DNA of 50,769 nt from Girardia tigrina. Lineage: Eukaryota. The stretch's first letter is position 1. Each line of letters opens with the position of its first letter. The stretch is from positions 1 to 50,769 of the forward strand of contig MQRK01249966.1 in assembly GCA_001938485.1 (NCBI GenBank). The letters are read 5' to 3'. Shown in pieces: positions 2,431 through 39,351 of the stretch. The notes below the pieces were generated by a model that made no database searches, had not been told where the DNA came from, and worked only from the letters and a program-made list of their open reading frames with translations. The position numbers were made by a program, and so were the translations under genes.

Positions 2431-5400
2431 TCAGCATTTTTTGATGTTTTTATTTTCCAGTATAGTTTCTTCTTTGGTTATAAATTTCATATGATCTCTA
2501 AAATATCCAAACATAAACTATTATATTATTAGCGAATTATACATCATTCCTATTGGTATATCTTTGTATGACTGGAGATTTTTGAGAATGAATTGTGAAT
2601 ATCGGGGTGACTTTTTCCACACATAATAAAAAAATATCAATTCCCAGAATTGTCGATTCTGAAACTGTTCAAACTTAAATAATGAAACACGAATTAAAAT
2701 ATACTATTTCGTTTGATTCTAGATAACACCTAAAGTTTTTATTATGCTTCAGAAAATTCTTTTCGAATTCTCTACATTCAGCAATTGAGAGCTTTTTTGG
2801 TTCTCTGGAGATTTTAACTGTTGAAAGAAAAGTATATAAAATTTTACAATTCAAATAAATATAAACAAGTAAAATATAAAAAAAGAATGATAAAAACTTA
2901 TGTATTTGACGAAAGAAAATATTTTGCTTATCATATCTTAAAATTAATTTGCCTATAAATTTAAGTGAAAAATCAGATAGACGTACTAATAATGTACAGA
3001 ATTATGTAAGTTTATTTTCTGATCATGTGAAAAAATATCGTTTTTGTGAGAAATTTTGATATAAAAAATATGAAAATAGATATAAATAGTAAAAAAGATT
3101 GGAGAAATTTATTTAAAATTAAGTTTATTATAGCATTTTCATAATGAAAATGATATTTTGTTAATAAATATTTTTTGAAAACTTAAAGATTTGATATACT
3201 TTTATAATAAAAAATTTAACAAAAACAATTCAGATTGTGAGGAATATTTTAAATTGTTTGAATATGTAAATGTATTGATGTTGTATGTTGATTTAAGTAT
3301 GTTGAATTTAGAATGGTGATTCTCCCATCCAGATGGAAATTGGTATTTTTTTATTTAAATTTAAAGTGATTGACTATTCGAACATAATTAAAATAATCAT
3401 TTTATAAGTTCATATTTTTAATTTCACAAATTAAAATTAAGTTTAATAATTTTTAGTAAAATTTAAATTAAATACATTTTTAATAATTTGATGACATTTT
3501 TATTATTTTTGGATTTATTGAGAAATTGTAAAAATTATTATTTTTTAATTAATATTTTTAGAGGTTAAATATTTTAAAAAATAACTTAGAAAATATTTAA
3601 CATATTTAAAATAACTTAGAAGGATGACAAACGATGAAAGACTTTCTGAGAGTCATAATGACTCTAAATGTGATTGTAATAAATATTCAAACGAGACTTA
3701 ATGTTCTTAATACAAATAAAATATAAAAAATATACTAAAAAAGAGATTGTTTAAATTAAAGAAGCCAAAAACATATTCCTTCTTACATGTATAAACCATC
3801 CTTCACAATGAAGAGAAATCATATTTGATATCGCTTCCATTATGCTATTCCCTTAATCAAGCTCTCTCTACGAGTAAGCTTCTTACACATGTTTTTTTAC
3901 TAAAGCTGAATTCTATCGGGTTTAACATATATGAATGCGGCGATAGATACTTCGTCAATGATATTAGTGTTTCACAGGCAGTTCTTGTTTCATTTAAAAC
4001 GTGTGCTCTAGCATTATCCGTATGAAAGCACACATCATTGATTTCCAATCTATTTACTACAATTTCGTTTAATTCTCTTAAAAATTCAACAAAAATTTTT
4101 CTTACAAGAACCAGAAAATATTTCATAATGTATTATTCCAGTGTTGTTTATTGCAACCAAGAGTCGTATTTGTTCCTCTTACTGCCGGAACTGTTACATT
4201 GACCCTTGTTCCACGTGGTGATCATCCAAAATTTCTCCTAAGGTGTAGATTAAAACCACACTCATCAATGAAAATATTTTTACGATCAATAAATCGAAGC
4301 ATTTGATAAAAATTCGATTGCATAAGTCTTTCGTAAGGCCAATCTGTCTGAATCATTTACACGATCCAGAATAAGACTGACTCTTTTTTAGCGTGATTTT
4401 AAGACCACGCAAATAGTTATGAATGGTCGTTAATGACAAAACAGCAACTTTATGTCCTTTGCATTCTCTTTTTAAATTCTCGAGAGTTATTGAACAATCT
4501 ATTTCGATCATTCTCTCGATGAATTGACCAATTTCTATATCGATTTTTTATGAGGTTTTCCTTGGATATTATTTTTTACAATTCTACTTGAATCTTTATA
4601 AACTTTTATAACCATTGAAACAGTCGATCTATCTATATAAATATCTTGAGAAACTTTAGTGATTGTTTCACCAAAGAAAATAACCTTTTCAATTATTAAT
4701 CTATTGGGTTGTTGCGTAAGTTCCCACCGTTACATGAAACTATTTATTCTACAAAGACTTTTTGATGTTTGGCAAAGTGTTATATACCATTAGAAAGCCC
4801 GTACTATGCTCTACAAGATTAAAGTAATCGTTTTTGTCTATATTATTTTTTTGCCTTTTTTAGAACCGTCAAATGGATTGTCAAGTCGACAAAAAATCGC
4901 ATTTTCGATACCTCCTTCTTTTCGCCTTTAATCGAGGTCAAAAATCGAGTGAAGCTAACAGAGATATTTGTGCCGTGTATGGAGAAGACGCTTTAGCTGA
5001 GAGAACTGCTCGTGATTGGTTTGCCAGGTTCAAACACGATAATTTCGACCTCAACGACGCTCCTCGTTCCGGAAGACCAGTCGAGATGGACAAGGACCAA
5101 CTCGGAGATCTTTTGAAGGAAGATGGCTGCCAGACATGCAGAGAATTGGCCGAAAACATGAATTGTGATTTTGCGACAATTTCACGCCATCTTCAGTCGA
5201 TGGGTTTCACTCAAAAGCTTGGAGCTGGGGTCCCGCACGAACTCACCCAAAAACAGAAGGATAAGCGGCTTTCCTTTGCTACTCAAAATCTCGCTCGACA
5301 CCAAGGAACCCATGGCCACAGGCAACGTTTCTTATACAGAATCGTCACTGGAGACGAGAAATGGTGTCTCTATATGAATATGAAACAAAGGAAAGAGTGG

Positions 5401-13232: not shown

Positions 13233-16200
13233 GCTATTGAGGAAGAAGAATTAAATATCCTTGTAATATTTAACGTGGAAATATCATTGTTTAAACGACT
13301 TATGTGTTTAAACACTCTTTCTGATCTGGCGCTTAGTTTATGAGGTCTGCCTCCACGTGGTTGATCTTTCACTTATCCTGTTTTTAAATACTTCGCCCAT
13401 ATTTTTTGCATTCCACGTTTTGAAATATTTCTATTATATCTTCTAAATAGTTTGACCTTTATTTGATTCCATGTACTTCCTTCATTTTTAAGCGCAACAA
13501 TCATACCACGTTTAAATTCCCTAAATACTCTTGGCATTTAATTTATCTAAAATTTAAAAAAATAAGTCATTAATGAAAATTTCAATATTTAACATATAAA
13601 TTCAAATGTGTAGCATAAAAAACTATATATAAACAAATATTCAAAATTAATATGACGTAAAATTTTTAGTTAGAAAATAAGTAATCAAAATACGAGGGGT
13701 GAACAGATTTATGAATCATACTGCATATATATAATATTGAGTCTTGTGAACGCAAGTTTAGTATTTCGAAAATATAATTTGATTAAAGCTTTTTTTATAT
13801 AATTATTGGACATGTTTCGATGTTTTTCATGTTTCCGAAAATTGTTGATGATGATGTATGTAAAAATCATAGAATTCAATTAGGTGGCCCTCTCTCCCGA
13901 TCTCTTCTAGTGCCTTCCTAATTTTTGATAATTGTGACACTCAAAAACTTATCGTGAAATAATACTAGTTGTGAGGAATGTTTTGAATTGCTTGTTGATA
14001 TTGTGCATGTCGGATTGTGTCTCTTCTATCCAGATGGCTGATTGGTATTTTCTTTAATTCTTATTAATTAAAATAATTTAACTTAATTTTAAAGTAAAAA
14101 GATTTAAAATAATTTTCGAATGCAATATTTAATTTTTAATGTAATTTATAATAAAATATATTAATTGATCCTTTTATAAATTGTTTAGAAAATAGTTTTG
14201 TTTAAAACTTAGTTTGAATTTAGAAATATATTGATCAAGAAAATGTCAAATAGCGAAAGTCTTTTGAATAATTGTTGTCATTATAATTGTAAGTAGCGTT
14301 TATGCCACTTTCATTATTATCACATTCTAAAGCCATAATTTAACACCACCAAAAATTTATTACTATAACAATTCACATTTCTAAAACAAATTTTCCTGTN
14401 NNNNNNNNNNNNNNNNNNNNNNNNNNNNNNNNNNNNNNNNNNNNNNNNNNNNNNNNNNNNNNNNNATATTTTTGTTTTCTTGACATTTTTAATTTTAAGA
14501 TATTTAATATTATTTAGATACATTAAAGATATTTTTTATTTTTAAATAAATATTTTACTTTTTTATGATTTTCTTTTATTATATGATTTTTAATTTTTTA
14601 AAATATTTAATAAGTAAATTAACATAAAAATATTTTACCCTTTAAATTAAAAAAATAATAAACTATTCAGGCGAGATAAAAATTTAAAATTAACACCTCA
14701 TAATAATAATGATTGTGGTGTTAATAAATGTTTGAAGAATCATATTGATGTTGTTAATACTGGTAAAAATAAATAAATATAGTTAAAATAACTCGAAAAT
14801 AAGGTTAGCAAGTTAGGTTTAAATTGTGATAATAAATGAAAAACCTGAAAGAAATTCTTTATTTCATATGTCAGAGAGAGATGTGAGGAATTTCCAATCT
14901 TTTTCGTTTAAATTTTTAAGTTTGCGTGAAAGAGCCAGGTTCTTTTTATATCCTAGTAAAATGTGGATCTATCATATCCTAAAAACGGATCTAATTCGGC
15001 AAAACAATGTAAAAATTACTATAGAATTCATTTGGGCATCCCTCTTCCCTTAAGTTAAGTCATTAAATTGTGACGATTGAAGAATAACTTGGAAAAAAAT
15101 TCTTTTGTGTCAGGGAGAAATGGGAGAAACGTTCAGTCTTTTGCTTACTTTTCGAGTGCAATAAACAAAAAAATCCTGGATGTATTTGGTTATGGTTCCC
15201 CAACAGTTTAAGAGTTTAAATCTATGGAAAGTTTAACTTTAACAGCATGTTGGACATTTGCTTTTGTACATTATCTTCATTGGAGTTGTTCAAGTGTCTC
15301 TAATGTTCCACGTTTATAAGAAATTTGTTTCTGCTATTTTAAAAATTTTTAATAAATTATTTTATTTTGATTTCAAAAAAATGATAATTTTTAAATAATT
15401 TCATAAATTAATGATTAAATCAAACGGTAAGTTAGCAATTAAACTCAAATAACACCATTTCAACTTTAAATTTTCATTGGAAAACATGTTTCGCCACTTT
15501 TGTGTCATCTTCAGTTCTGTATTTAATTAGAAAGTTATTGTTTATATAGTAAGATGACCATTACGTCACAATGTGTTACGTCAAAATACTCTAATCTGAT
15601 TGGACGAATCACTTTGCATATTTAAACTAGGTGTACAAAACTTTATTAACAGTGCTTCAGTAAATGTCCTTTCATAATTGTCATCAAAGTTACTAATCAA
15701 AAAATTCCATATTCCGAAGGTGCTGGGATTTTAAACAAATTTCAAAAAAACAGGCCCCAGTAGGTGTTACAATTAAAATATTGTTTCTAACTAATAAAAT
15801 TTCTTATTATTTTTCAAATAAATCTAAAACACAATTGGGTATGAAAGCAAATTTAGTTTACCAATATAAATGTCACAAGTGTGAATCCTTGTACATTGGA
15901 GAGACAAATCGTCACCTCCGATCTAGAATTGCAGAACATACCCAATCAAGTAGAATAAGCTCAATTTTGGACCACACAGTGAAATGTCATGGAACTCAGA
16001 TGATGGTATTTGATAATGATTTTCGGGTTTTGATTAGTAACTTTGATGACTGTGAGGATAATTAGATGTATATAAGTATTTATACAGTGTCATGTGGTTA
16101 ACTGTAGTTAACCAGCATTTAAGAAAAAATGGCGGATTCTGATTTTTTCTTAATTAGGCTGATAAATTTATTTGTTAAATTTAAAACAGTAAGATTTTTT

Positions 16201-23560: not shown

Positions 23561-25348
23561 CCATCAGTTTTTAGAGTTCAACGGCAACTCTGATACATAA
23601 TCTACGTCTCTCCAGGTTAATATTTCGCCAGTGGGAAACCGACGCGTCTCCTCTGCGCGCATCAACAAGTCGTGTGTGCTTCGGAGCGCCTTCGGGTTCA
23701 ACCAGTAAAAGGTATTGCCCGGCTGGTAGCAACAGCGTCTGAAGGGGTTGTGTTATTTCAGATCGAATTTTAAATGTTTCACCATGTTCGTTAAAATGAA
23801 TAAATCGGACGAAGAGAGCCCTAAGGAAATAAACGTCGGCCCGCCGCGTGCCCCTTGCATTCTGCGGCAGCCTGTGTCATCCCCAAAAGGTTCCTCGTTC
23901 TTTTGCGATTAAATTATCATTCAGAATTTACATTGATTTCGTGCTTAGTTACACTTTGACAAAATACTCTACATTCAACTTTGAGTTCTTTTTATAACTT
24001 TGTAATTTAATTTTTTATTAATTCTATTTTATTAAATTAGCACTCGTAGCCCTGAATTTTTATAATCAGAAGTGCAATCTTTTCTCTACTGTTTCCTGAT
24101 GTCAAATTTAATTAATGTGGTTCAACAATTGTTGGGAAGCACAGTGACCCTCCGACATTTCTGCTGTTTGGTGTGATAGATCAACTTTTCTCATTACCTT
24201 TTTAATCTTGAGTTCCTACACTCTTTCAAAAAAAATTTTGAAATAAACTTTTCTCTACCTCGATTTTATAACCACACATCATATTACTAAAGAGGGCCGT
24301 TTATATGTTTATATAGGTTTGTCATAGTTATTTTGACAACGACCTTTCCTCTTTTAAAATAGAATTAAAATTCGGAAGACTTTAAATCAACTCCAACACT
24401 CCGATAAGTTCGGGATCTATCCCAAGCTACCAATCTCAAAACCAATAATTTGTCGTAATTACTTACCAGAGCGAAATCAATAAAAAAATAATTAAGGGAA
24501 ATTACTAAAATTATAAATTCCAAATTTATATTAAAATCAATATGAAGGAGAAATTACGAAACTTTTTTAATTTTAATTACCAACTTTACAACAGGCAAAT
24601 TAAATTCCTCAATCATGAGTTTTAATCATAAAATAACAAAAATAAAAGAAATTTAATCTTTGAATTCATTAAATAAAATATAAAGAATTAGCTAATTAAA
24701 TTAGTCAAAGTTAATAATTTCAGATAAAATTTTGCCTTTAATTGAATCGAGTAAATAATTAAGTAAACCGTTAAATTAAATCAATTATAAGTCGTTGCTT
24801 CTAATGCCAATTAAAATATTTACATATCATAAATATTATTACAGGGGAGTTCCATACGAATATTAAACTCATCGTTGTTATTTGTATCATCATAAAATTT
24901 ATTATTATGAAACTCCAAACCATAATAAAACTTTCATGATAAAATTTCGTAAGGATTACAATAAAAGTTATAAAATAAAATTACATATTAGAATTCAACT
25001 CATCGTGTCACTATGTGAAGAAGAGTGGTAAGGAGCATTAGCCATAATCCCGAGCTTTCCTTATCACCCATACAATCTTTTATATATAGGTAAACCTTTC
25101 ATAATTTTAATTTTCATGATTCTCCCTTTACAAGCTTGTCGTCCTCTATAACCATGCTCATGTTGGCTATTACTTTGAACTTTCTCTAAAACCGATAAAC
25201 TTCTATACCCCCCACTCGGCGTCTTCACTCCTTATCTTTTCGTCGACCCACAAGATCCTCTCACTCCAGTCTTTCCTTCCCAACTGTCTCTCTCCAGTTA
25301 ATCCCCTTATTCTTGAATGGTAGCGGAATTCACGCTTATCTGCACCCC

Positions 25349-25518
25349 TTCCCGCTCGTGACACCATGAGTATTTTAAGAATTAAATAAAATAATAAGCA
25401 ATAAATAAATTAGGAGTAAAAATAAAAATGTATTAATTTACACAAATTGTAAACACCAATTATCAGATAATATTAAGGAAATTAAAATTCATAAATAAAC
25501 AAACAAAGTAGTAACTCA
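25349..25518 (-). mobile_element. Short LTR (25367-25518) with adjacent primer-binding site
   Basis: Termini TGAGT...ACTCA, followed immediately by TGGTGTCACGAGCGGGAA (tRNA-Leu-like PBS). Confidence 0.6.
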
Positions 25519-25971
25519 TCCATACCTTTGACTAAAATATTTCGATCTCTCAAAAGAACTGTCGTATTGATAAAACAATGAATCGCCAAAACAAAATCGT
25601 TGAATCGGTAAAATCAGTTGAGACGAATTAAACCAGTAAAATCGGTACAATATCGTGCAAAATAAATAATAAAGTTAGTGAAGTCTGTGCAAATTTGTGT
25701 GTGAATAATGATAATAATAAGTGAGTGTTTACAGTGTTCAAAGTGTTCAGATGTTCAAGTGTTCAAGTGTAATGGATTACAGCCGCTTATCAAATATGAA
25801 TTTCCTCAAAAGTGTTCATCGTAAGCTTTTTTTCTTATTTTTTTAATTTTTTTCAAGAGTAACCTGTATGGGTAAAGATGAAAAAGATAATAATCCTATT
25901 TTTTTTAAAAGATCAAAGTCAACAACAACCAACTCCACACAGAGTAATCTTATAGAAAGGAATAGTCAAAA

Positions 25972-27148
25972 ATGTTAGGTCGAGATAACATATATGAAAA
26001 TAGAGCCCTCACGGACAATCTTGCATTCCCAAATGACATTAAAGTGTCGGATTTAGAAATCGAGATACATTTACGGGTTTTAACCCAGATGGATCCAGTA
26101 AGACTACGCGAAATATTTTCAAAGGAATGGTTAGGAGAATTGGAATTACATATTGTTAGTCATAGGGTGGAAGTTTCAACAAATTCCCAGAGATTTTTAG
26201 CCGATCAAACAATAACATCTCGGGTCACAGAAAACGAAATAAATGTGTTAGAGCGACGCACGAGTTGGAAATTGAACGAAGAACAATTAAATTTTTATGT
26301 GCGAGCCTACAATGCTCCTGCTTTAGTGGCCATCGAGTATAGAAAATCACCGGAAAACCCACATTATAACCCAAAATTTAGGGTTCATAAAGAAGAACTG
26401 GAAGATGCATTATATGAGCCAACAAAGGAGGACTTTAGTCATAGAAAAAGTTTTATAGGGAAACCTTTGTCAAAGAAGGAAATACAAAAAAAATTAATAT
26501 TTTTGATGCTAAATTCACAACGAACAAATCGATAAAGCAATAGGTTTTGTGTCCATTGCAATCATAAATATCAAGGGTGAGGAACTGATCAATGTATTCA
26601 CCACGCCCAGACAGAAAATAATATGCACAGGAGAAAGACATCACGGCATTACAGAGCCGATGATGAGAAAACAGAGGGACGAGTATGAAGTTATCGAAAA
26701 GGTCCAGCAACTGTGTTACGGAAAAATTCTAATGGGGCATGACCTCCAACTAGAATTAAAAGCATTAAATATAAATAAAAAAGAATTATTAGAAATTAGG
26801 GATTTGTCTGCGACGAGAACATTATATGAAATTGGTCAAAAATCCAAAGCAGGTGGTATACTCTTCAAGCGTCAAACATTAGCAAGGAATATCCTTAAGA
26901 GAAACATTCAAATTCCGGGATGCCACAACGCGTTGGAGGATGCCATAGCGATCAAGGATAGAGACAATGCAATCGAGCCAAATTATATCGATCACAAGAT
27001 TTGGGAATCCATGGAAGTAGATAGCCAAAAAAGGAAAACAGTTCTGGATTGTAGAATTATGATCAATGAAAAAAAGAGAAAAAGAAATCTTGAAGAAGAG
27101 TTAAAAATCTTGGATACAAATGATATAAAACATTTTTCTCTTCCTTAA
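25972..27148 (+). pseudogene. Unknown N-terminal domain plus REX4/ISG20-like DEDDh 3'-5' exonuclease (frameshifted)
   Basis: ExoI-like IFDAKF (~26490-26515, shifted frame), HHGIT, GKILMGHDLQLELKAL, IRDLS, LARNILKRNIQ and ExoIII HNALEDA (H-x4-D). Confidence 0.75.
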
Positions 27149-27296
27149 TTTGAAATGGATAAGCTTCAGCACATTCTACGACATCCATTAATGAATATAT
27201 TTTGCCCACTTCTGTTTGTGAACAATCATACGCTACTAAAGACATCGCTGGAGATATACTTAAGAATCAAATCATCATTAATGATAACTACCACAT
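27100..27296 (-). pseudogene. N-terminus of a chuvirus-like envelope glycoprotein (env)
   Basis: Hydrophobic leader MW*LSLMMI*FLSISPAMS, then LVAYDCSQTEVGKIYSLMDVVEC, matching the YDC-x-SLxDVxEC start of chuviral-type glycoproteins; truncated. Confidence 0.55.
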
Positions 27297-27299
27297 TTT

Positions 27300-29760
27300 T
27301 GAATTATTTTTAGATTTTTTACCATCATCAATTTTGTTATCTTTCAAGGATTCATTTCTTATTACTTTAGTACGAACGTTTTTACTTCTTTTTGATACAC
27401 TTTTACTTATTAAATTAACATTTATATCTACATCGGGAGTATTTTGATACTGAAACATATTTTCTTCCTTTTTTATTTCAACTTTTTGTAAATCATCAGT
27501 AAATTTGTTACAATCATTAATATCGTAAATTCTTCAATATAATAAACTGTTATATTATTAATTTCTTTTTCCAGAGATACATAATCATATAAATAATTTT
27601 CATCTTGTAATTCTAAATCCAAAATAAATAAAAGTACTGTTCCTTCAATTTTAAACATTTCTTTGACTTTTTGTCTTAAAGTTTTTACTTTAATTGTCCA
27701 AACTACAGCAGTATTAATTGTACCTTTTCCTGGAACTTCTATTGCTAGAAATAACTTTTGAATATCTTTATTTTTCTGTCTACTATATTGACCAAATTTT
27801 ATCAAAATTTCTTGTATTTCTTTTTTCGACATCGTTTCTTGTTTTAATTTATATATTAATACCGATCTAAGATTATTTATTACACTATCATTAATGTTTA
27901 ACGTTTCTATTTCTTTAATTATATTCTTTAACTTTTCTTCATTAACTTCATTTTTTAATAGTGTGAGGAATATTTTAAATTGTTTGAATGTGTAAATGTA
28001 TGGATGATGTATGTTGATTTAAGTATGTTGAATTTAGAATGGTGATTCTCCCACCAAGATGGAAATTGGTATTTTTTATTAAGTTTAAAGTGATTGACTA
28101 TTCGAACATGATTAAAATAATCATTTTATGAGTTCATATTTTTTTAATTTAAGAATTAAAATTAAGTTTAATATTTTTTAGTAAAATTTAAATTAAATGC
28201 ATTTTTAATAATTTCATGTCATTTTTATTATTTTGGGATTTATTGAAAAATGGTAAAAATTAATATTTTTAATTAATATTTTTTAGAGGTTAAATAATTT
28301 AAAAAATAATTTAAAAAAACTGTTCGAATAATCATGATTAAAAACAGAAATAAGAAAACCAACTAGAACTATGGCAAACGATGAAAGACCTTCTGAGAGT
28401 CTTAATGACTCTAAATGTAATTGCAATGAAGATTTAAACGAGACTTGTTTAAATGTTCTTAATAAATAGTAATGCCAAATCTTTAATATAATTTTCAGAT
28501 ATATTCATTTTATTATCATTATTTTCTAACATTATAATATCAAGTGTTAATGTTATTTGGTAATATTCCATAATCCACATAAATAGTATTCTAATTCTAA
28601 TTCAAAACATTTGAAATTCATAATAAATTTATCATTTCCAATCTTTTGCACAAGCATTTCCTTCAAATGTTTAACTTTCTGAAGATGATTTATTTGAATT
28701 ACTGTAAATTCTTGTCAATTAAGAGTTATAAAAATCTGAAGATTATCTGTCATAGGCATTTTTCTCAATTGTTCTCCTAAAAATTTCAAAAATGTTTTCA
28801 TTTCACAATTCATCGTTGTATTATAATCTAAATAATTCACTACCAACTTTATAAAATGTTCAGTTTTATCATTTGGTAAATTCAATTCAATTATTTCTTT
28901 AATATTTTTACTTATTTTACCATTTAAATCTTTATTCATTTCCATTTTGTTTATTAATCTACTCATATATATTCTCGATTTATCTAACTTAACATCATCA
29001 ATTTTATCAGAAACACTTTGAACTTTACTTTCAATTTTACTATTATTTTCATTTTGTTTCAATTTATTTTTATTTTTATCTTTCGATGTTGATAGCATCT
29101 GTACACTTGGATCAGTTTTATTAAGTTTTTTTAATTTTCTTCTTCAAAATTGATGGTGATGGTATTTGTATATTTGATTTACATTATCTGGCAACATGAC
29201 CATATTTTTTATATTTTTCACACTGTATTTGACCTTCACTGTTAAGTTTTGCTCTCTGTGGAGAAGGAGTTAAAGATCTATTTCTAGTCATATCTGTTCT
29301 ACATACATTGGCTAGATGAACTCTTTTCACACATTTGTAACATGTTTTAATAGGTGATTTTCGATTATTATTTGTATTATTCTTGAACCAACATTGACTG
29401 CTGACATGACCAATTTTGTTACAGTTATAACATTGAGGTTTTCTTGTATAATTATTTGACTCTATACTGTCGTTAAATCTCATTGATCTTGAAAAATTCG
29501 GACTTCTCAAATAATTTGGGCTTTCATTATTGTTATTTCTACAACCAAAATATTGATTTTGTCTTGGATTTTAATTTTGGGGTCTGTATCTTTGCATTTT
29601 TGGAGATGCATAAATTTGAAAATCTTCATCTGTATCATTGTTGTTTGAATATGTCTTCTGTTTAGGTCTTTCTATCGGTTTTAATTCAGTTACATATACT
29701 GGTCTGTAGTGATCACAATTTATTAATTTAATAATTATTAATTTAATTTTAACAATCAAA
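27300..29760 (-). pseudogene. Degraded retroelement Gag-like polyprotein: 3 CCHC knuckles, coiled-coil region and ubiquitin-like domain
   Basis: CYNCNKIGHVSSQC, CYKCVKRVHLANVC and CEKYKKYGHVAR*C; K/N/E-rich helical region at 28715-29098; UBL-like 27473-27832; frame restored across the solo-LTR insertion (YIKDLALL|LKNEVNEE). Confidence 0.7.
27962..28464 (+). mobile_element. Solo LTR, TGTGAGGAA...TTCTTAATA family
   Basis: Perfect 5-bp TSD AATAG; near-identical to 3236-3712. Confidence 0.88.
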
Positions 29761-29976
29761 ATTTAATAACAAAAAAATGTGTAAAAATGCGAAATTTAAT
29801 TTAAAAAAAACAATGGAGTGAATTGACAACATTAGAACAGAAAAAAGTATCGAAAAAAAAACTTAAAAAAATTAACACTATAATTATGTTGTTTGAATAA
29901 TTTCAATTTGGTCGTTACTTTCAAAAAAAATATATATCTTTTGTGATTGTAAATAAAATCTTTGTACAGATTTAAA

Positions 29977-30440
29977 ATGTTTTTCTATTTTGACCAATTT
30001 TCTCAACAAATCCGTTATCGAATTTAATGAAATTTAATTGAAATTTCTGAGTGAAATTCGAACGATTGGTCATGACCATCTACAAAGAACTGACAATCGA
30101 CGATATTATCGAATGTTTCACTGATCCCTCGAACAAAATCGACAGTCAATTGTTGAATATTTTCTTGTACACCTATCGGAATTATTCGCCTGTAATCAAC
30201 TTTTTTGACTCGAAAATGCATTCGATTCCCGAACCCGATCAAACTTTCCAATCGTCAAATTTCAGCAACGATCACACCAACTCGACCAATGAGAACAGCG
30301 TCAGTTTACTCAACCAGTCGCCCGTGGCCGACTTCAATTTGTCTCATTTGGATCAATCGGCGGCCAACAACAACGGTAACAACCTCACCAATCATATCAA
30401 CGGCACTAACGGCAACTCGATCGCCCTCAAGTCAAATTGA
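29977..30440 (+). pseudogene. RasGEF N-terminal (REM) domain fragment, RalGDS/RGL-like
   Basis: KFERLVMTIYKELTIDDIIECFTDPSNKIDSQLLNIFLYTYRNYSP matches the REM pattern (T.d.lie.l...D...l.iFL.TYR.f). Possible 38-nt intron at 30014-30051; CpG-rich like host exons; no downstream CDC25-domain exons found. Confidence 0.55.
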
Positions 30441-30559
30441 CTTCGTTCCGGAGCTGTCGGGCAAGATGGCGGCCCCCACTATATCCCAACGCCATCCGAA
30501 ACCGGTAGGCTATTATTTTTTTTAGCAGTTTCTCTCGATCCAATTCCCAGGATCGATTT

Positions 30560-31408
30560 ACATAGACGAAGTGGCGCCCACTCTTCATGGTCGAATAGGA
30601 GCTGCAGTAGTATTCATTTCTATTTTCATAGCCTTTTTACCAGATCATCGTATTTTGTATAGTCTGCAAAACAAAGTGCTGTTCTTATGTCATTTTGAAC
30701 TCCAGCCCAAAACTGATCTTCAACTATATTTTTTGTTTGTTCTGTCCAATTTCTCTTTTCTCCAAACGCTTTTTCCGCAAGTGTAGATAAATGAAAAGCG
30801 AATTCACCAACTGATTCCTCCGCATTTTTAATTAGAGAATAAAACTTTTCCGTATGATTCTACCAAAATCGCCAATTATTAATTTTTCAGCCATTAAATC
30901 TTTCATATTTTCTGAAGTTTCAACTCCATTTTTATCAATTTGATTAAAAACTTCTCTAGCTACACCTTTTCAATATAACGCTAATCTTTGAATCATTATT
31001 TTTTCGGCTCATCCATACGCTGTAGCCAACATAAAATATTCTGTCATAAAATCTACAAATTCCACGGGGTCTGCCCCATATTGATTTACAGGTAACTTTT
31101 GACAATTCGCAAAATATATATTATTCTCTCTATTTTCTGTCATCGTTTCTTTTTTAACTTTTTCCGATTTCTCAAAGGATAATTAGACGTTTTGTTACTT
31201 TTTTCGAAATTTCAATTATTAAAAATATACTCTTTTTGTTTTAAGAACAGAGGGCTCACCAAATATATTTATGTTGGGTATTAAAATCTTTAATCTGAAA
31301 TATTTACTTTTGAGAAACACAAATCTTTAATCCTTAATCTTTACTTTTTAAACTTTAATTGCAAATCTGACTCCAATTAATCAGTAATTACTTCCAACAT
31401 AAATATAT
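30560..31408 (-). mobile_element. Gypsy 5' end: LTR/inverted repeat, PBS and degraded gag
   Basis: PBS-like TGGTGAGCCC (31261-31252); gag FVDFMTEYFMLATAYG*AEKIMIQRLALY*KGVAREVF from ATG 31143; LTR boundary ambiguous (31408 or 32519). Confidence 0.65.
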
Positions 31409-31455
31409 AAATGAATGAACGCAAATTCTTTTATAAAACTTTATTTTTATAACAC

Positions 31456-32009
31456 TGTGAGGAATATTTTAAATTTGGTATGTTGAAATTGGTTTGTTGA
31501 ATTTTGTATGTTGAGTTTAGTATTTGGAAATGTGTTTCTCCCACACAGATGGAAAATTGATATTTTAGATGTTCACGATAAATAATTATTCGAGTATAAT
31601 CCATATAATTTAAATTTTAATTTATATTTTAAAGTACAACATAAGATATTTAAAAACATTAAAAATATTAAATCTTTTCAAATCTTCATATTAAAATTTA
31701 AATAAAATAAANNNNNNNNNNNNNNNNNNNNNNNNNNNNNNNNNNNNNNNNNNNNNNNNNNNNNNNNNNNNNNNNNNNNNNNNNNNNNNNNNNNNNNNNN
31801 NNNNNNNNNNNNNNNNNNNNNNNNNNNNNNNNNNNNNNNNNNNNNNNNNNNNNNNNNNNNNNNNNNNNNNNNNNNNNNNNNNNNNNNNNNNNNNNNNNAT
31901 CAATTTAGAACGATGTCGAATGACGAGAGTTTCGCTGAGAGTTGTCCAAAAGACAATTCTGATTGTAATGAAAATAAAAGTTTGAAAAGCCATGTTGGTG
32001 TTCTTAATA
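31456..32009 (+). mobile_element. Solo LTR, TGTGAGGAA...TTCTTAATA family (contains an N gap)
   Basis: Perfect 5-bp TSD AACAC. Confidence 0.85.
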
Positions 32010-32648
32010 AACACAATATAGCACGCAGCTTTATATTGTTCAAATCAATAGTATCAATTAACGTATTCACAAACGGATAATCGATGAGAGTTTATCAGAT
32101 CACAGTTTATTAATATCGAAACTATAAATCCTCTAAAGAACGATAACCGTTAGACTCTCAAAATCAAATGAACTCTTATTCTCCTATACAGGATACTGAG
32201 TTCAACTTCAACTTCAGGATAAAAAAAATAAAAAGGAAAGAATTTAAATGAATTTACTCTACACGGAATCTTCTTTTAAAGTTTATTGTAAGAAATTATT
32301 GGTGTGATTTTGACTGAATTCGTTGCTGTTTATATATTAGCTTTTTCTAACCTTGAAAATTAAATAGCTAAAACAAATCTCAAAATATTTATAATTATTC
32401 TACAAATTTTATTAAAATAATGTAAATTGAAAATTAATGATTTTTTTTAAATTTTCAATTATTTTTTTGCAAGAATTTTTCTGATTAAAAATTTTAAATA
32501 ATATTTTCGAACCCCAACATATTTTAATTCCAACACAAATAATCAAATATTAAACAACAACAATAATTGAATATTTAAATAACATTTAATTATCCAACTG
32601 TAGTAAAATAATATAAATTTAACATTGTACAGTAATTATTTGTAGTTA

Positions 32649-37202: not shown

Positions 37203-39351
37203 ATGAAACCACTATGTGTAGTTTTGTTGCTATTAAGTTTCATAGTCGTCGCGAGATCGCAAATCGAGGGTTTATATTGTGGCAAAGACAACTGCTATGA
37301 AGGTAGAGTTTTGATTGTCGTTCTGATTTTCGTTTCACGTGGCAAATAAAATTAAAAAAAACAGTTCTCGGAATTACTCGAGACGATGATAAAGCAACAA
37401 TTAGAAAAGCCTACAAAGTATTGGCGAAGAAATTCCATCCGGATAAACAGAGAACCGAAGAGGACAAAGAAGCGGCAGAAATAACTTTTAGGAAAATTGC
37501 CGCGGCATATGAAGTAATACGAGTTCAAATAATTTTTGCGATTTTTTGTCCATTTTTTTATTAAAAGAAAATCGGGTTGCGACCCTCATATTCTTAGAAA
37601 TTGATGTTAATATAATGAAAAACAATCTTCTTTTTCAATTATTTTAAAATGATTTATTGTTGTTATTTATGAAAAATGAATTTTTAAGAAAAATATTATT
37701 TAAAGTTAAAGTAAGTCCTATTTAAGTCTAAACTGGAGTAAAATATGATATATATATATATATTAAACCAAATTTGTGTAATTGCCGAATTCGTGAACTT
37801 GTCAAAATTTTCCTAATTCACTGACTATTTGAAAAATTTTCAATATAATATGAAAAATCTCAATTTATTATGCAAAATAGACTCGAAGTGTAAAATTTTT
37901 ATTCATAGTTATTACAACTTATTTCTGGGTGACAAGCTGAATCGCAAACGTTTGTATTTTTAAAACATTTTTTTCGTATTAAATGCAGAATATTTTATAT
38001 TAATTTCATAATTGAAATAAAAAAATTGCCGTTCTCGAATTTGGGAAGTCGATTGCCGAATACACAAATTCGCAGAACATATATATTAGGTTGGAGAAAA
38101 AGAAATCCATTATTTTGGCGTGAAATTCAAAACTTTATTTAACATGTTTCGGATTGTTCTCTTGGAGTCAAATATGCACTGTTTTGTTGTATTATTAGTT
38201 GCCATTTTGAAGGTAGCTTCATAATGCCTCTCTCGTAGAAGTCTTGGTCCTTATTGGCGAAAAACTGTAGTAATCGATTTTCACAATCTTCTATTGATCC
38301 CAATTTCTTATCACTCAGGAAATTTTGCAATGCGAGAAAAAGATGGTAATTGCTTGGTGCTAGGTCCGGACTATATGGTGGATGCGTTAAAACTTCCCGG
38401 CCAAGCTCCCTGAATTTCTAGCGAGTCACTACAAACGTATGTGGTCTGGCGTTGTCGTGATGGAACTCAACACCTCTTCTGTTGACCAATTCTGGTCGTT
38501 TCTCATCAATTGCTATCTTCAAACGGTGCAGTTGTTGACAGTACAGATCTGAATTTAGTGTTTGGCCAAGCGGAAGCTACTCATAATAAATGATTCCTTT
38601 CCAGTCCCACCAAATACACAGTAGAACCTTCCTGGCCGTTAGTACTGGTTTGGCGACCGTTTGAGGTGCTTCACCGTGCTTTGACTACAATCGTTTTCGT
38701 ACAATATTGTCGTATCTCACCCTTTTCTCATCCCCAGTAACCATCCGTCTTAGAAATGGGTCGATTTCATTTCATTTGACCAAGGCTTCGCAGATTGAAA
38801 TTCGATCCATCATGTTTTTTGGTGTTAATTGGTGTGGAACCCAAACATTAAGTTTCTTTTTGAATCCTGCTTTGCCCAAATGGTTTAAAACCGTTTTGTG
38901 GTCAATCTTCAGCTCCTGTGCGATTCTACGACTACTAACATGCCGGTTAACTTCGATCATTACCGAGATTTTATCGACATTTTCAACGATAGGCCTGCCT
39001 GTGCGAGTTGCATCTTTAACATCAAAAATGCCTCCACGGAATCGACGAAACCAAAATTGCGTGTAATTAACTGTTACAGTATTGGCACCATAAACACCAT
39101 TCACAATAACAGCCGCATGGCTTGCATTTTCGCCTTTATCGAATGAAAACTGTAAACTGTACCGAATTTTTTCTTTGTTGACTTCCATTTTTAACATCCT
39201 GTAGCTCAGAAGTGAATAAAAAAAGCAAAAAATTTTTTGTGAAATTACTGTGAAATGTTACCTTGACAAAGATCATAAATTTGAAATTGTTTCATCGATA
39301 AATAATTAATTAAAATAATAGTTTAAAATAATGGATTACTTTTTCCCCAAC

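Follow-up and report, generated by a model that had tools for sequence, protein, structure and literature searches.

A probable decayed gag-env-pol LTR element of the planarian Girardia tigrina with an exonuclease gene in a locally convergent layout

Organization of the Locus

The window (the whole 50,769-nucleotide stretch of Girardia tigrina DNA analyzed here) carries on its minus strand the remains of an LTR, a gag region, and the start of an env gene, which meet an exonuclease gene on the plus strand. The upstream part of the 5' LTR (32010..32420, minus strand) is 73% identical to the LTR of another copy, L053, and in L028, L030, L032, and L038 the same sequence follows the exonuclease. 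A solo-LTR-like secondary insertion with a 5-bp target duplication and an N gap (31456..32009), missing from a second version of the window locus (L021), separates it from the 3' part of the LTR (31248..31455, minus strand), which ends at 31272 according to the alignment of 5' and 3' LTR ends and is followed about 10 nt further on by a primer-binding-like site starting with TGG. The decayed capsid domain of Gag (30635..31176, minus strand) is 94% identical at the DNA level to L053, the ORF of which matches Retrotrans_gag (E 3e-5). It is followed by an 883-bp multi-copy element inserted in plus orientation (29705..30587), with TG...CA ends, a 5-bp target duplication, and a piece of a RasGEF_N gene inside; an exact-match check at five other loci returned no target duplications for this insert.

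The nucleocapsid region of Gag (29130..29704, minus strand) contains three CCHC knuckles, the third of which is decayed. The zinc knuckles of the preliminary description were recovered on the minus strand at 29187-29570, with one stretch in the window matching Pfam zf-CCHC at E 3e-5 and three stretches in L053 at E 7e-13. On the same strand follow a charged helical linker (28742..29129; coiled coil by eye, its start about 90 bp shorter than in other copies), a decayed ubiquitin-like domain (28521..28741), a four-helix region (27745..28520; low-confidence model), and a second, weakly called ubiquitin-like domain (27527..27744). The four-helix region is continuous in other copies and is interrupted here by a 502-bp solo LTR from another Gypsy family (27963..28464), which is flanked by a 5-bp target duplication and is missing from those copies; its sequence follows integrase and a polypurine tract in L130, and a second copy lies in the window at 3237-3712. 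The single continuous coding track that had been described is split by the 502-bp insertion and starts at the 883-bp one, beyond which the capsid domain and the LTR lie at 30635-32420.

The track closes with an internal signal peptide, bearing stops in this copy, and the first ~44 codons of a truncated chuvirus/gB-type Env (27108..27296, minus strand). The signal peptide and YDC glycoprotein start proposed earlier hold up, at 27296-27108, with a match to Pfam Monjiviricetes_fusion of E 0.019 in the window and of E 4e-58 in copy L057. Here env passes into the plus-strand ORF2 through a 14-bp microhomology (27108..27121), recognized as an inversion junction by side-by-side comparison with 10 exonuclease and 9 env copies. 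ORF2 comprises a frameshifted N-terminal domain, predicted to be a cupin-like double-stranded beta-helix (25869..26360), and an exonuclease of ISG20/REX4 type in a D-E-E-D-h variant with the start of a tail (26490..27121), its first motif being disrupted and its tail cut at the junction. The opposite orientation of exonuclease and gag-env, as originally described for this window, is real. The inverted piece is bounded by an unrelated low-copy repeat outside the element (24180..25739), to which the stretch 25520-25739, formerly counted as part of the element, belongs.

Native Architecture of the Element Family

Other copies of the family show the native order on one strand: LTR-gag-UBL-UBL-env-PR-RT-RH-IN followed by a signal, FN3-like repeats, and a TM segment, then ORF2 (cupin-like domain plus exonuclease) and the LTR. 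Two contigs, C210912 and C252751, each carry the whole module series, which substantiates the earlier proposal that gag, ubiquitin-like domain, env, and exonuclease are parts of a single endogenous-retrovirus-like family with cargo genes. In all four copies examined for this, the exonuclease is followed on the same strand by the polypurine tract and the LTR, and comparison of four 5' and four 3' copies showed LTRs with TG...CA ends, a primer-binding-like site, and a polypurine tract. First-look candidates numbered 835-1550 per module and 2,639 for the exonuclease in the genome. The RNase H is nearest to Ty3 (E 8e-9), as is the RT-RH of the sister family L110 (E 8e-78). The PR-RT-RH-IN series is present in other copies and missing from the window copy; since pol natively follows env, no module has been lost from the interval between the two upstream genes, gag and env, and the internal deletion of pol postulated in the preliminary description falls away.

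Across copies, the reading frame is continuous at 40 of 41 junctions from the capsid to the last TM segment, with ORF2 separate; the RH-to-IN junction was open in none of the one pair available for this family and is open in the sister families L089 and L110. From this we infer a single polyprotein of ~3,100 residues, encoded by an element of ~15 kb by summed module spacing. It has to be noted that all copies examined are broken (87-96% identical) and that the assembly is fragmented. None of the data sets containing the element is recorded as RNA; three contig sets guessed to be RNA cover parts of the copy L023, and they do not give strand or level.

Origin of the Convergent Junction

On 13 of the 15 contigs that link the exonuclease ORF to upstream modules, everything lies on the same strand, with the exonuclease downstream of pol, and the two convergent cases are the window locus and contig C230115. 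It would be extremely improbable that the family natively has a convergent antisense exonuclease and that a pol once situated between gag and env was deleted from the window copy: the layout does occur twice, but the flanks of C230115 match those of the window at 90-94%, and it therefore represents the same event, in a second version of one locus, while the exonuclease is sense on 13 other contigs and PR-RT-IN come after env in other copies. A junction-spanning match was found in 2 of 40 scored matches, the second of which shares a 5 kb flank with the window. A rare inverted subfamily may nevertheless exist, because the contigs scored were best matches on long contigs and represent 40 of about 1,100 candidates. 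By sequence comparison, the antisense layout, first taken for a family trait, is a local rearrangement scar at one locus.

How the scar arose allows for a second explanation, in which two family copies lying head to head were fused by a deletion at the microhomology, rather than one copy having undergone an internal inversion. The FN3, IN, and RT parts expected to the left of the inverted block are indeed missing from the window, and the piece ends at 25739 against the unrelated repeat; on the other hand, the left side shows neither a second LTR nor any other part of a second copy, and the two pieces match one and the same subfamily at 90-95% identity, which leaves the two-copy fusion as a possible but rather unlikely origin. 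The choice between the two affects only the history of this locus. The reading preferred here, to which we assign a probability of about 80%, is that the region derives from a planarian Ty3/Gypsy LTR element that is present in many copies and follows the gag-env-pol errantivirus plan. The copy seen here is decayed, and its exonuclease, which in other copies is sense and conserved, with counter-defense as its most likely role, was flipped by an inversion-type join.

Ubiquitin-like Domains, Env, and the Tail after Integrase

The ubiquitin-like segment of the preliminary description finds support through the sister family L089, in which the homologue of the first repeat scores 26.5 bits against a Pfam ubiquitin cut-off of 25.4 bits and is linked to the present family at E 9.5e-8; the number of segments has to be corrected, as the family appears to carry two repeats. 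In the family itself the signal is weak: the PDB match, of the second repeat to the UBL of UHRF1, has an E of 0.58, the Atlas value is 0.82-0.83, and the pLDDT of the fold model is 41. The second repeat, the L089 homologue of which matches Pfam ubiquitin at E 0.09, stays a weak prediction. A fold search with the UBL-helix-UBL model, which is too poor for this purpose, gave generic helical matches only. Functionally, these domains would recruit or decoy the ubiquitin machinery.

The fibronectin-like stretch after integrase is predicted to form a second surface protein. Pfam fn3 was matched in 4 of 12 members with a modest best E of 3.4e-5, the three repeats were counted by eye, and the TM segment behind them reaches a hydropathy peak of 2.6; the second signal peptide, in front of the repeats, scores under the hydropathy threshold. 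The region had no match in the PDB, and no homologues were found among longer proteins, the profile search giving three unnamed proteins. In the mechanism proposed, cleavage by signal peptidase would send Env and the FN3-TM protein along the secretory pathway. PR-RT-RH-IN would stay on the cytosolic side, tethered by a membrane anchor at each end, and be freed by the protease; the particles would bear a fusogen and a second, attachment-type protein. The FN3-TM tail thereby suggests a two-protein entry system, with a membrane topology that is unsure because two hydrophobic stretches follow Env.

The ORF2 Exonuclease

The REX4/ISG20-like exonuclease recognized earlier on the plus strand is supported by a match of the window copy to Pfam RNase_T (E 2.5e-6) and by its nearest solved structures, ISG20 and ISG20L2; the PDB profile search lists ISG20L2, ISG20, SDN1, PAN2, and PolC. 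The acidic set with the catalytic His reads D-E-E-H-D in this family and D-E-D-H-D in some relatives; it is disrupted in the window copy and kept in 25 of 36 parsed copies. These features mark ORF2 as a putative DEDDh exonuclease of the REX4/ISG20 group, with a predicted 3'-5' RNase activity. Twelve database relatives have lost most of the catalytic residues; in the exonuclease tree, a quick IQ-TREE result, a branch of 11 relatives without these residues persists.

The model of the N-terminal domain has a pLDDT mostly of 70-90 over residues 11-160, and nearly all of its top matches are cupin-fold proteins, the best of which (Z 8.5, rmsd 3.2, 94 residues aligned) perhaps reflects only a common fold. 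A conserved metal triad is absent, with one near-invariant His alone among 31 relatives, and the best ESM Atlas match (0.75) pointed to no family.

The position of ORF2 is fixed at ~0.5 kb after the TM segment and before the PPT-LTR. ORF2 occurs in many diverged families, and its exonuclease, with dN/dS of 0.14-0.23 between subfamilies, is under purifying selection. Backbones that are 88-92% identical bear exonucleases of 71-91% identity, a greater divergence that fits an exchanged or fast-evolving accessory gene. In a set of 40 exonuclease loci of greater divergence, retroelement modules precede the gene on its own strand at 22 (the FN3 region at 15 of these) and lie only on the opposite strand at one. 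At the remaining 17 no upstream module was found, which could mean that ORF2 is a mobile element or host gene family in its own right that only tends to adjoin these elements. This is very improbable in view of the constant position of ORF2 and of the lack of visible introns; moreover, several of these 17 loci lie on short contigs or follow the membrane-protein tail of a sister family. The downstream flanks of 20 diverged loci contained no gag, and there is therefore no sign of ORF2 as a 5' ORF in this genome. On one metagenome contig (L079) ORF2 precedes a gag, an arrangement that may have arisen when the assembly ran through an LTR.

Possible Roles of ORF2

For the role of ORF2, counter-defense, by trimming double-stranded or small RNAs derived from the element, is the favored option, with not quite an even chance; a part in processing the ends of the element's RNA is a tentative option, and some other role a more doubtful one. 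A related proposal, in which ORF2 would be a housekeeping enzyme of the element cycle that trims the 3' end of the genomic RNA, primers, or reverse-transcription by-products and takes no part in counter-defense, is likewise possible but on balance unlikely. It accords with the catalytic residues being kept across ORF2 relatives at 25-35% identity and with the REX4/ISG20L2 kin being RNA-processing enzymes, but most Gypsy elements do without such an exonuclease, the branch of 11 relatives persists without the catalytic residues, and ORF2 diverges faster than the backbone. Housekeeping has also been suggested for the DEDDy ORFs of rotifers (PMC5408684).

The broadest model considered, put forward here tentatively and with less than even odds, regards planarian errantiviruses as complex endogenous viruses, with a multi-pass polyprotein bearing a gB-type fusogen and a post-integrase FN3 attachment protein, and with a separate cupin-ISG20-like exonuclease that would have been captured once from the REX4/ISG20 group, exchanged among lineages, some of its forms being dead decoys, and dedicated to antagonizing small-RNA or dsRNA defense in stem cells. 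To our knowledge, almost nothing is known of accessory genes in invertebrate errantiviruses; a conserved, selected exonuclease that is kin to an antiviral host enzyme is a candidate for explaining the persistence of env-bearing retroelements against PIWI/RNAi control in planarian stem cells (for the PIWI context only, see PMC8532177).

Comparison with Known Systems

For planarian elements, the literature already documents the gag-env-pol order, an env in frame, and a domain of the ubiquitin-like type (PMC6431247, PMC13524379). The closest parallels are Smed_errantivirus_1 and _2, flatworm GAG-ENV-POL errantiviruses with an HSV/gB-type Env (PMC13524379), which resemble the present family in being multi-copy Ty3/Gypsy elements of the same gene order and Env type; long motifs are shared, by eye only, with their listed Env domain. 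The main text of PMC13524379 mentions no exonuclease, fibronectin, or ubiquitin and describes nothing downstream of pol. The present family falls outside the inclusion rule of that paper (intact, near-identical recent copies), which is a rule of the paper and not a trait of the lineage.

Burro/GYPSM1 likewise has an in-frame env (mononegavirus-like in Burro) between gag and pol, followed by PR-RT-RH-IN, all in a single polyprotein that also includes Gag, two or three CCHC knuckles, and a Ubi2/SUMO-like motif (PMC6431247). Burro differs in size, exceeding 30 kb with an ORF of 4,900-5,100 residues, such that the present element is not the giant it had been called, and in having MATH, BIR, BCL2, and ankyrin domains (PMC6431247); Pfam scans of the ORFs of the present family showed none of these, and the sister family L110 has an ankyrin-like stretch (E 0.005). 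What the present family adds are two UBLs, the FN3-TM tail, and ORF2, the latter two being unmentioned for Burro in section 7 of PMC6431247. The module combination, initially thought undescribed, is in part published, as Gag-UBL-env in frame before pol (PMC6431247 section 7; PMC13524379). In the literature searched, no description was found of ORF2, as a DEDDh ORF, or of the FN3-TM tail after integrase; Repbase, Sacco 2022, and figure files may have recorded these domains.

Host-derived DEDDh exonucleases also occur in viral genomes as the ExoN of arenaviruses and nidoviruses, that of arenaviruses suppressing innate signaling (10.1101/2021.02.01.429129); with no sequence link found in the PDB profile search, they offer a functional analogy to ORF2 only. 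Closer in layout are the bdelloid LTR retrotransposons Juno and Vesta, which carry a DEDDy ORF3 (PMC5408684) and share with the present family a 3'-5' exonuclease encoded as a separate ORF after pol, often with E as the third acidic residue (DEED). Their enzyme is, however, RNase D-like and they have no true env (PMC5408684), whereas the planarian element is env-bearing and encodes a DEDDh enzyme of ISG20/REX4 type that is joined to a cupin-like domain, and these differences in enzyme class, fusion, and env argue for an independent capture in this family.

Native organization of the family

Every module of the window element is a high-copy repeat in the genome search, in which the exonuclease drew at least 835 first-look candidates, the env start at least 1,145 and the UBL (ubiquitin-like) region at least 866 (40 scored in each case), so that the native layout can be decided from other copies. 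Flanks were taken from the best matches on long contigs, and 22 module queries, each cut from a single natural copy, were mapped onto the copies. The resulting order runs from an LTR of approximately 0.7 kb through the capsid, three knuckles, a linker, UBL1, four helices, UBL2, a signal peptide, Env and its TM into PR, RT, RH and IN, followed by a second signal-like stretch, fibronectin type III (FN3)-like repeats and a TM. ORF2 lies about 0.5 kb beyond this last TM, with the PPT and LTR after it; the polypurine tract precedes the LTR in all four three-prime copies. Pfam matched Retrotrans_gag, three zf-CCHC, Monjiviricetes_fusion (E 4e-58), aspartyl protease, RT, RNase H and integrase in family copies, and fn3 weakly.

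The entire series from gag to exonuclease is present on single contigs (C210912 and C252751), which bears out the proposal of the preliminary description that gag, UBL, env and exonuclease belong to one family. Two further traits that it had assigned to the family, an antisense exonuclease and a missing pol between gag and env, did not hold: strand is the same throughout in 13 of the 15 contigs linking this family's ORF2 to upstream modules, and PR-RT-RH-IN is natively downstream of Env. That count leaves out L047, whose exonuclease belongs to another family, and L049, which has only a 176-nt ORF2-tail piece amid fragments on both strands. Copy L040 has one additional inverted env fragment.

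In the motif-pair analysis, for 40 of 41 junctions from the capsid to the last TM there was at least one copy with an open, in-frame passage; the RH-to-IN junction was open in 0 of 1 pair of this family and is open in sister families, and the TM-to-ORF2 junction was open in none of three. Order, strand, frames and selection are observations on the family itself, and from the copies we infer an element of about 15 kb, coding for one polyprotein of some 3,100 residues and for an ORF2 of 500-560 residues. In copy L026 an in-frame deletion (L026:3117-3120) took out env and protease, joining UBL1 to the pre-RT region, and at L049:5629-7758 (minus strand) a piece of a 14-3-3 host gene (Pfam E 9e-36) is fused in frame with the env C-half and protease.

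Evidence for the UBL domains is weak in this family itself; in sister family L089 the matching domain lies above the Pfam ubiquitin cut-off, and the second repeat reaches E 0.09. Across families the post-integrase region retains its signal-like stretch, FN3-like repeats and TM at 26-44% identity, with Pfam fn3 matched in 4 of 12 members and no match in a PDB search of the FN3-like region.

The window copy

The minus strand of the window retains the LTR, gag, both UBLs and 44 env codons, the Env body, pol and FN3 region being lost and all genes broken by stops, frameshifts or truncation; an unrelated repeat lies left of 25739. Six-frame translation recovered the parts named in the preliminary description, and its observation and interpretation stand in part. 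Pfam on window pieces gave zf-CCHC (E 3e-5) for the knuckles, RNase_T (E 2.5e-6) for the exonuclease and a weak fusion glycoprotein match (E 0.019) for the viral glycoprotein start.

Env and ORF2 join in opposite orientation at 27108-27121, a 14-bp stretch fitting both parents. A junction-spanning search found this join in 2 of 40 scored matches, and the second contig bearing it shares kilobases of flank with the window at 90-94%; the inverted join is therefore one event. Contigs C230115 (L021/L022) and C102616 (L146) match the locus at 90-95% with differing internal deletions, and may be strongly diverged haplotypes or duplications of it.

The window copy was later hit by three insertions, all flanked by 5-bp target duplications. 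One of them, an 883-bp mobile element at 29705-30587, has TG...CA ends; it contains part of a RasGEF_N gene (Pfam E 3e-6) and was found at 91-100% in 40 of 40 scored loci (1,048 candidates in the genome). A second Gypsy group left solo-LTR-like insertions at 27963-28464, 31456-32009 and 3237-3712; their ends are TG...TA, they have 5-bp duplications, and two of them lie within the single element copy. Many Tc1/mariner transposase relics (815-22600 and 38139-39257) and a Penelope-like GIY-YIG piece (15697-16065) were named by eye.

ORF2 and its possible function

Database searches (ENA, JGI and Logan records) returned full-length natural homologues with N-domain and exonuclease within one protein, the relatives forming 56 clusters at E<=1e-10. 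A profile from 31 relatives had ISG20L2 (E 2e-33) and ISG20 (E 5e-25) among its matches. In a quick tree of 137 exonuclease domains all 32 N-domain-bearing rows fall inside one 59-row branch (SH-aLRT 98), which is long compared with REX4-like proteins. This family's catalytic residues are D-E-E-H-D; some relatives have D-E-D-H-D instead, and in 12 relatives the set is mostly gone. The N-domain gave a confident fold model, which resembles cupin and 2OG dioxygenase structures (Z 8.5 at best, 94 aligned at rmsd 3.2); since it has a single conserved His and a full metal triad was not found, it is likely a binding module rather than an oxygenase. TQT motifs in the ORF2 tail of this copy's subfamily resemble dynein light chain LC8 sites and may be such sites; they are not family-wide. 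An open 1,095-residue ORF (L027:298-3582, minus strand), with no Pfam match, interrupts the ORF2 tail of copy L026.

By our own Nei-Gojobori script, the exonuclease has a dN/dS of 0.14-0.23 between subfamilies and the N-domain one of 0.17-0.29; among close decayed copies the values are 0.4-0.76. Identity to reference copy L026 is 87-92% for the backbone and 71-91% for the exonuclease. This faster divergence, the dead variants and the analogy with arenavirus ExoN point to an ORF2 that would trim RNA triggering or guiding host defence, at a probability of roughly 0.45; the main rival, that it serves self-processing of the element's own RNA, we consider less likely. As for the polyprotein, signal peptidase cleavage would free Env and the FN3-TM protein, the pol enzymes would remain cytosolic between two membrane anchors, and particles would bear both a fusogen and an attachment protein; this topology is unsure because two hydrophobic stretches follow Env.

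A genome search for diverged ORF2 homologues gave 2,639 and 1,980 candidates, and 40 loci were examined, picked on long contigs among 86 and 76 listed matches. Retroelement modules lie upstream on the same strand in 22 of the 40 (with the FN3 region in 15 of those), and on the other strand only in one; the remaining 17 showed no upstream module, some being short and some having a different membrane-protein tail. In sister families L092, L110, L113 and L093, what comes after IN is an ankyrin-like stretch, then a type I membrane protein of another kind, and then a longer ORF2. The post-integrase tail is thus an exchangeable slot. On metagenome contig L079, two short coiled ORFs precede the ORF2 homologue and gag lies 2 kb after it.

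Comparison with known systems

Flatworm errantiviruses are described in PMC13524379 as having a gag-env-pol order and an Env of the HSV/gB type; the Env domains listed there for Smed_errantivirus_1 and _2 resemble those of this family, a likeness judged by eye. Burro, the giant planarian Gypsy element, likewise has its env in frame and contains a Ubi2/SUMO-like motif (PMC6431247), and PMC5408684 reports DEDDy ORF3s in rotifer LTR elements. In a literature search, with Repbase outside its scope, neither a DEDDh ORF2 nor an FN3 tail turned up as described for elements of this kind. The window element is a planarian gag-env-pol errantivirus, of which ORF2 and the FN3 tail are apparently two accessory parts so far undescribed.
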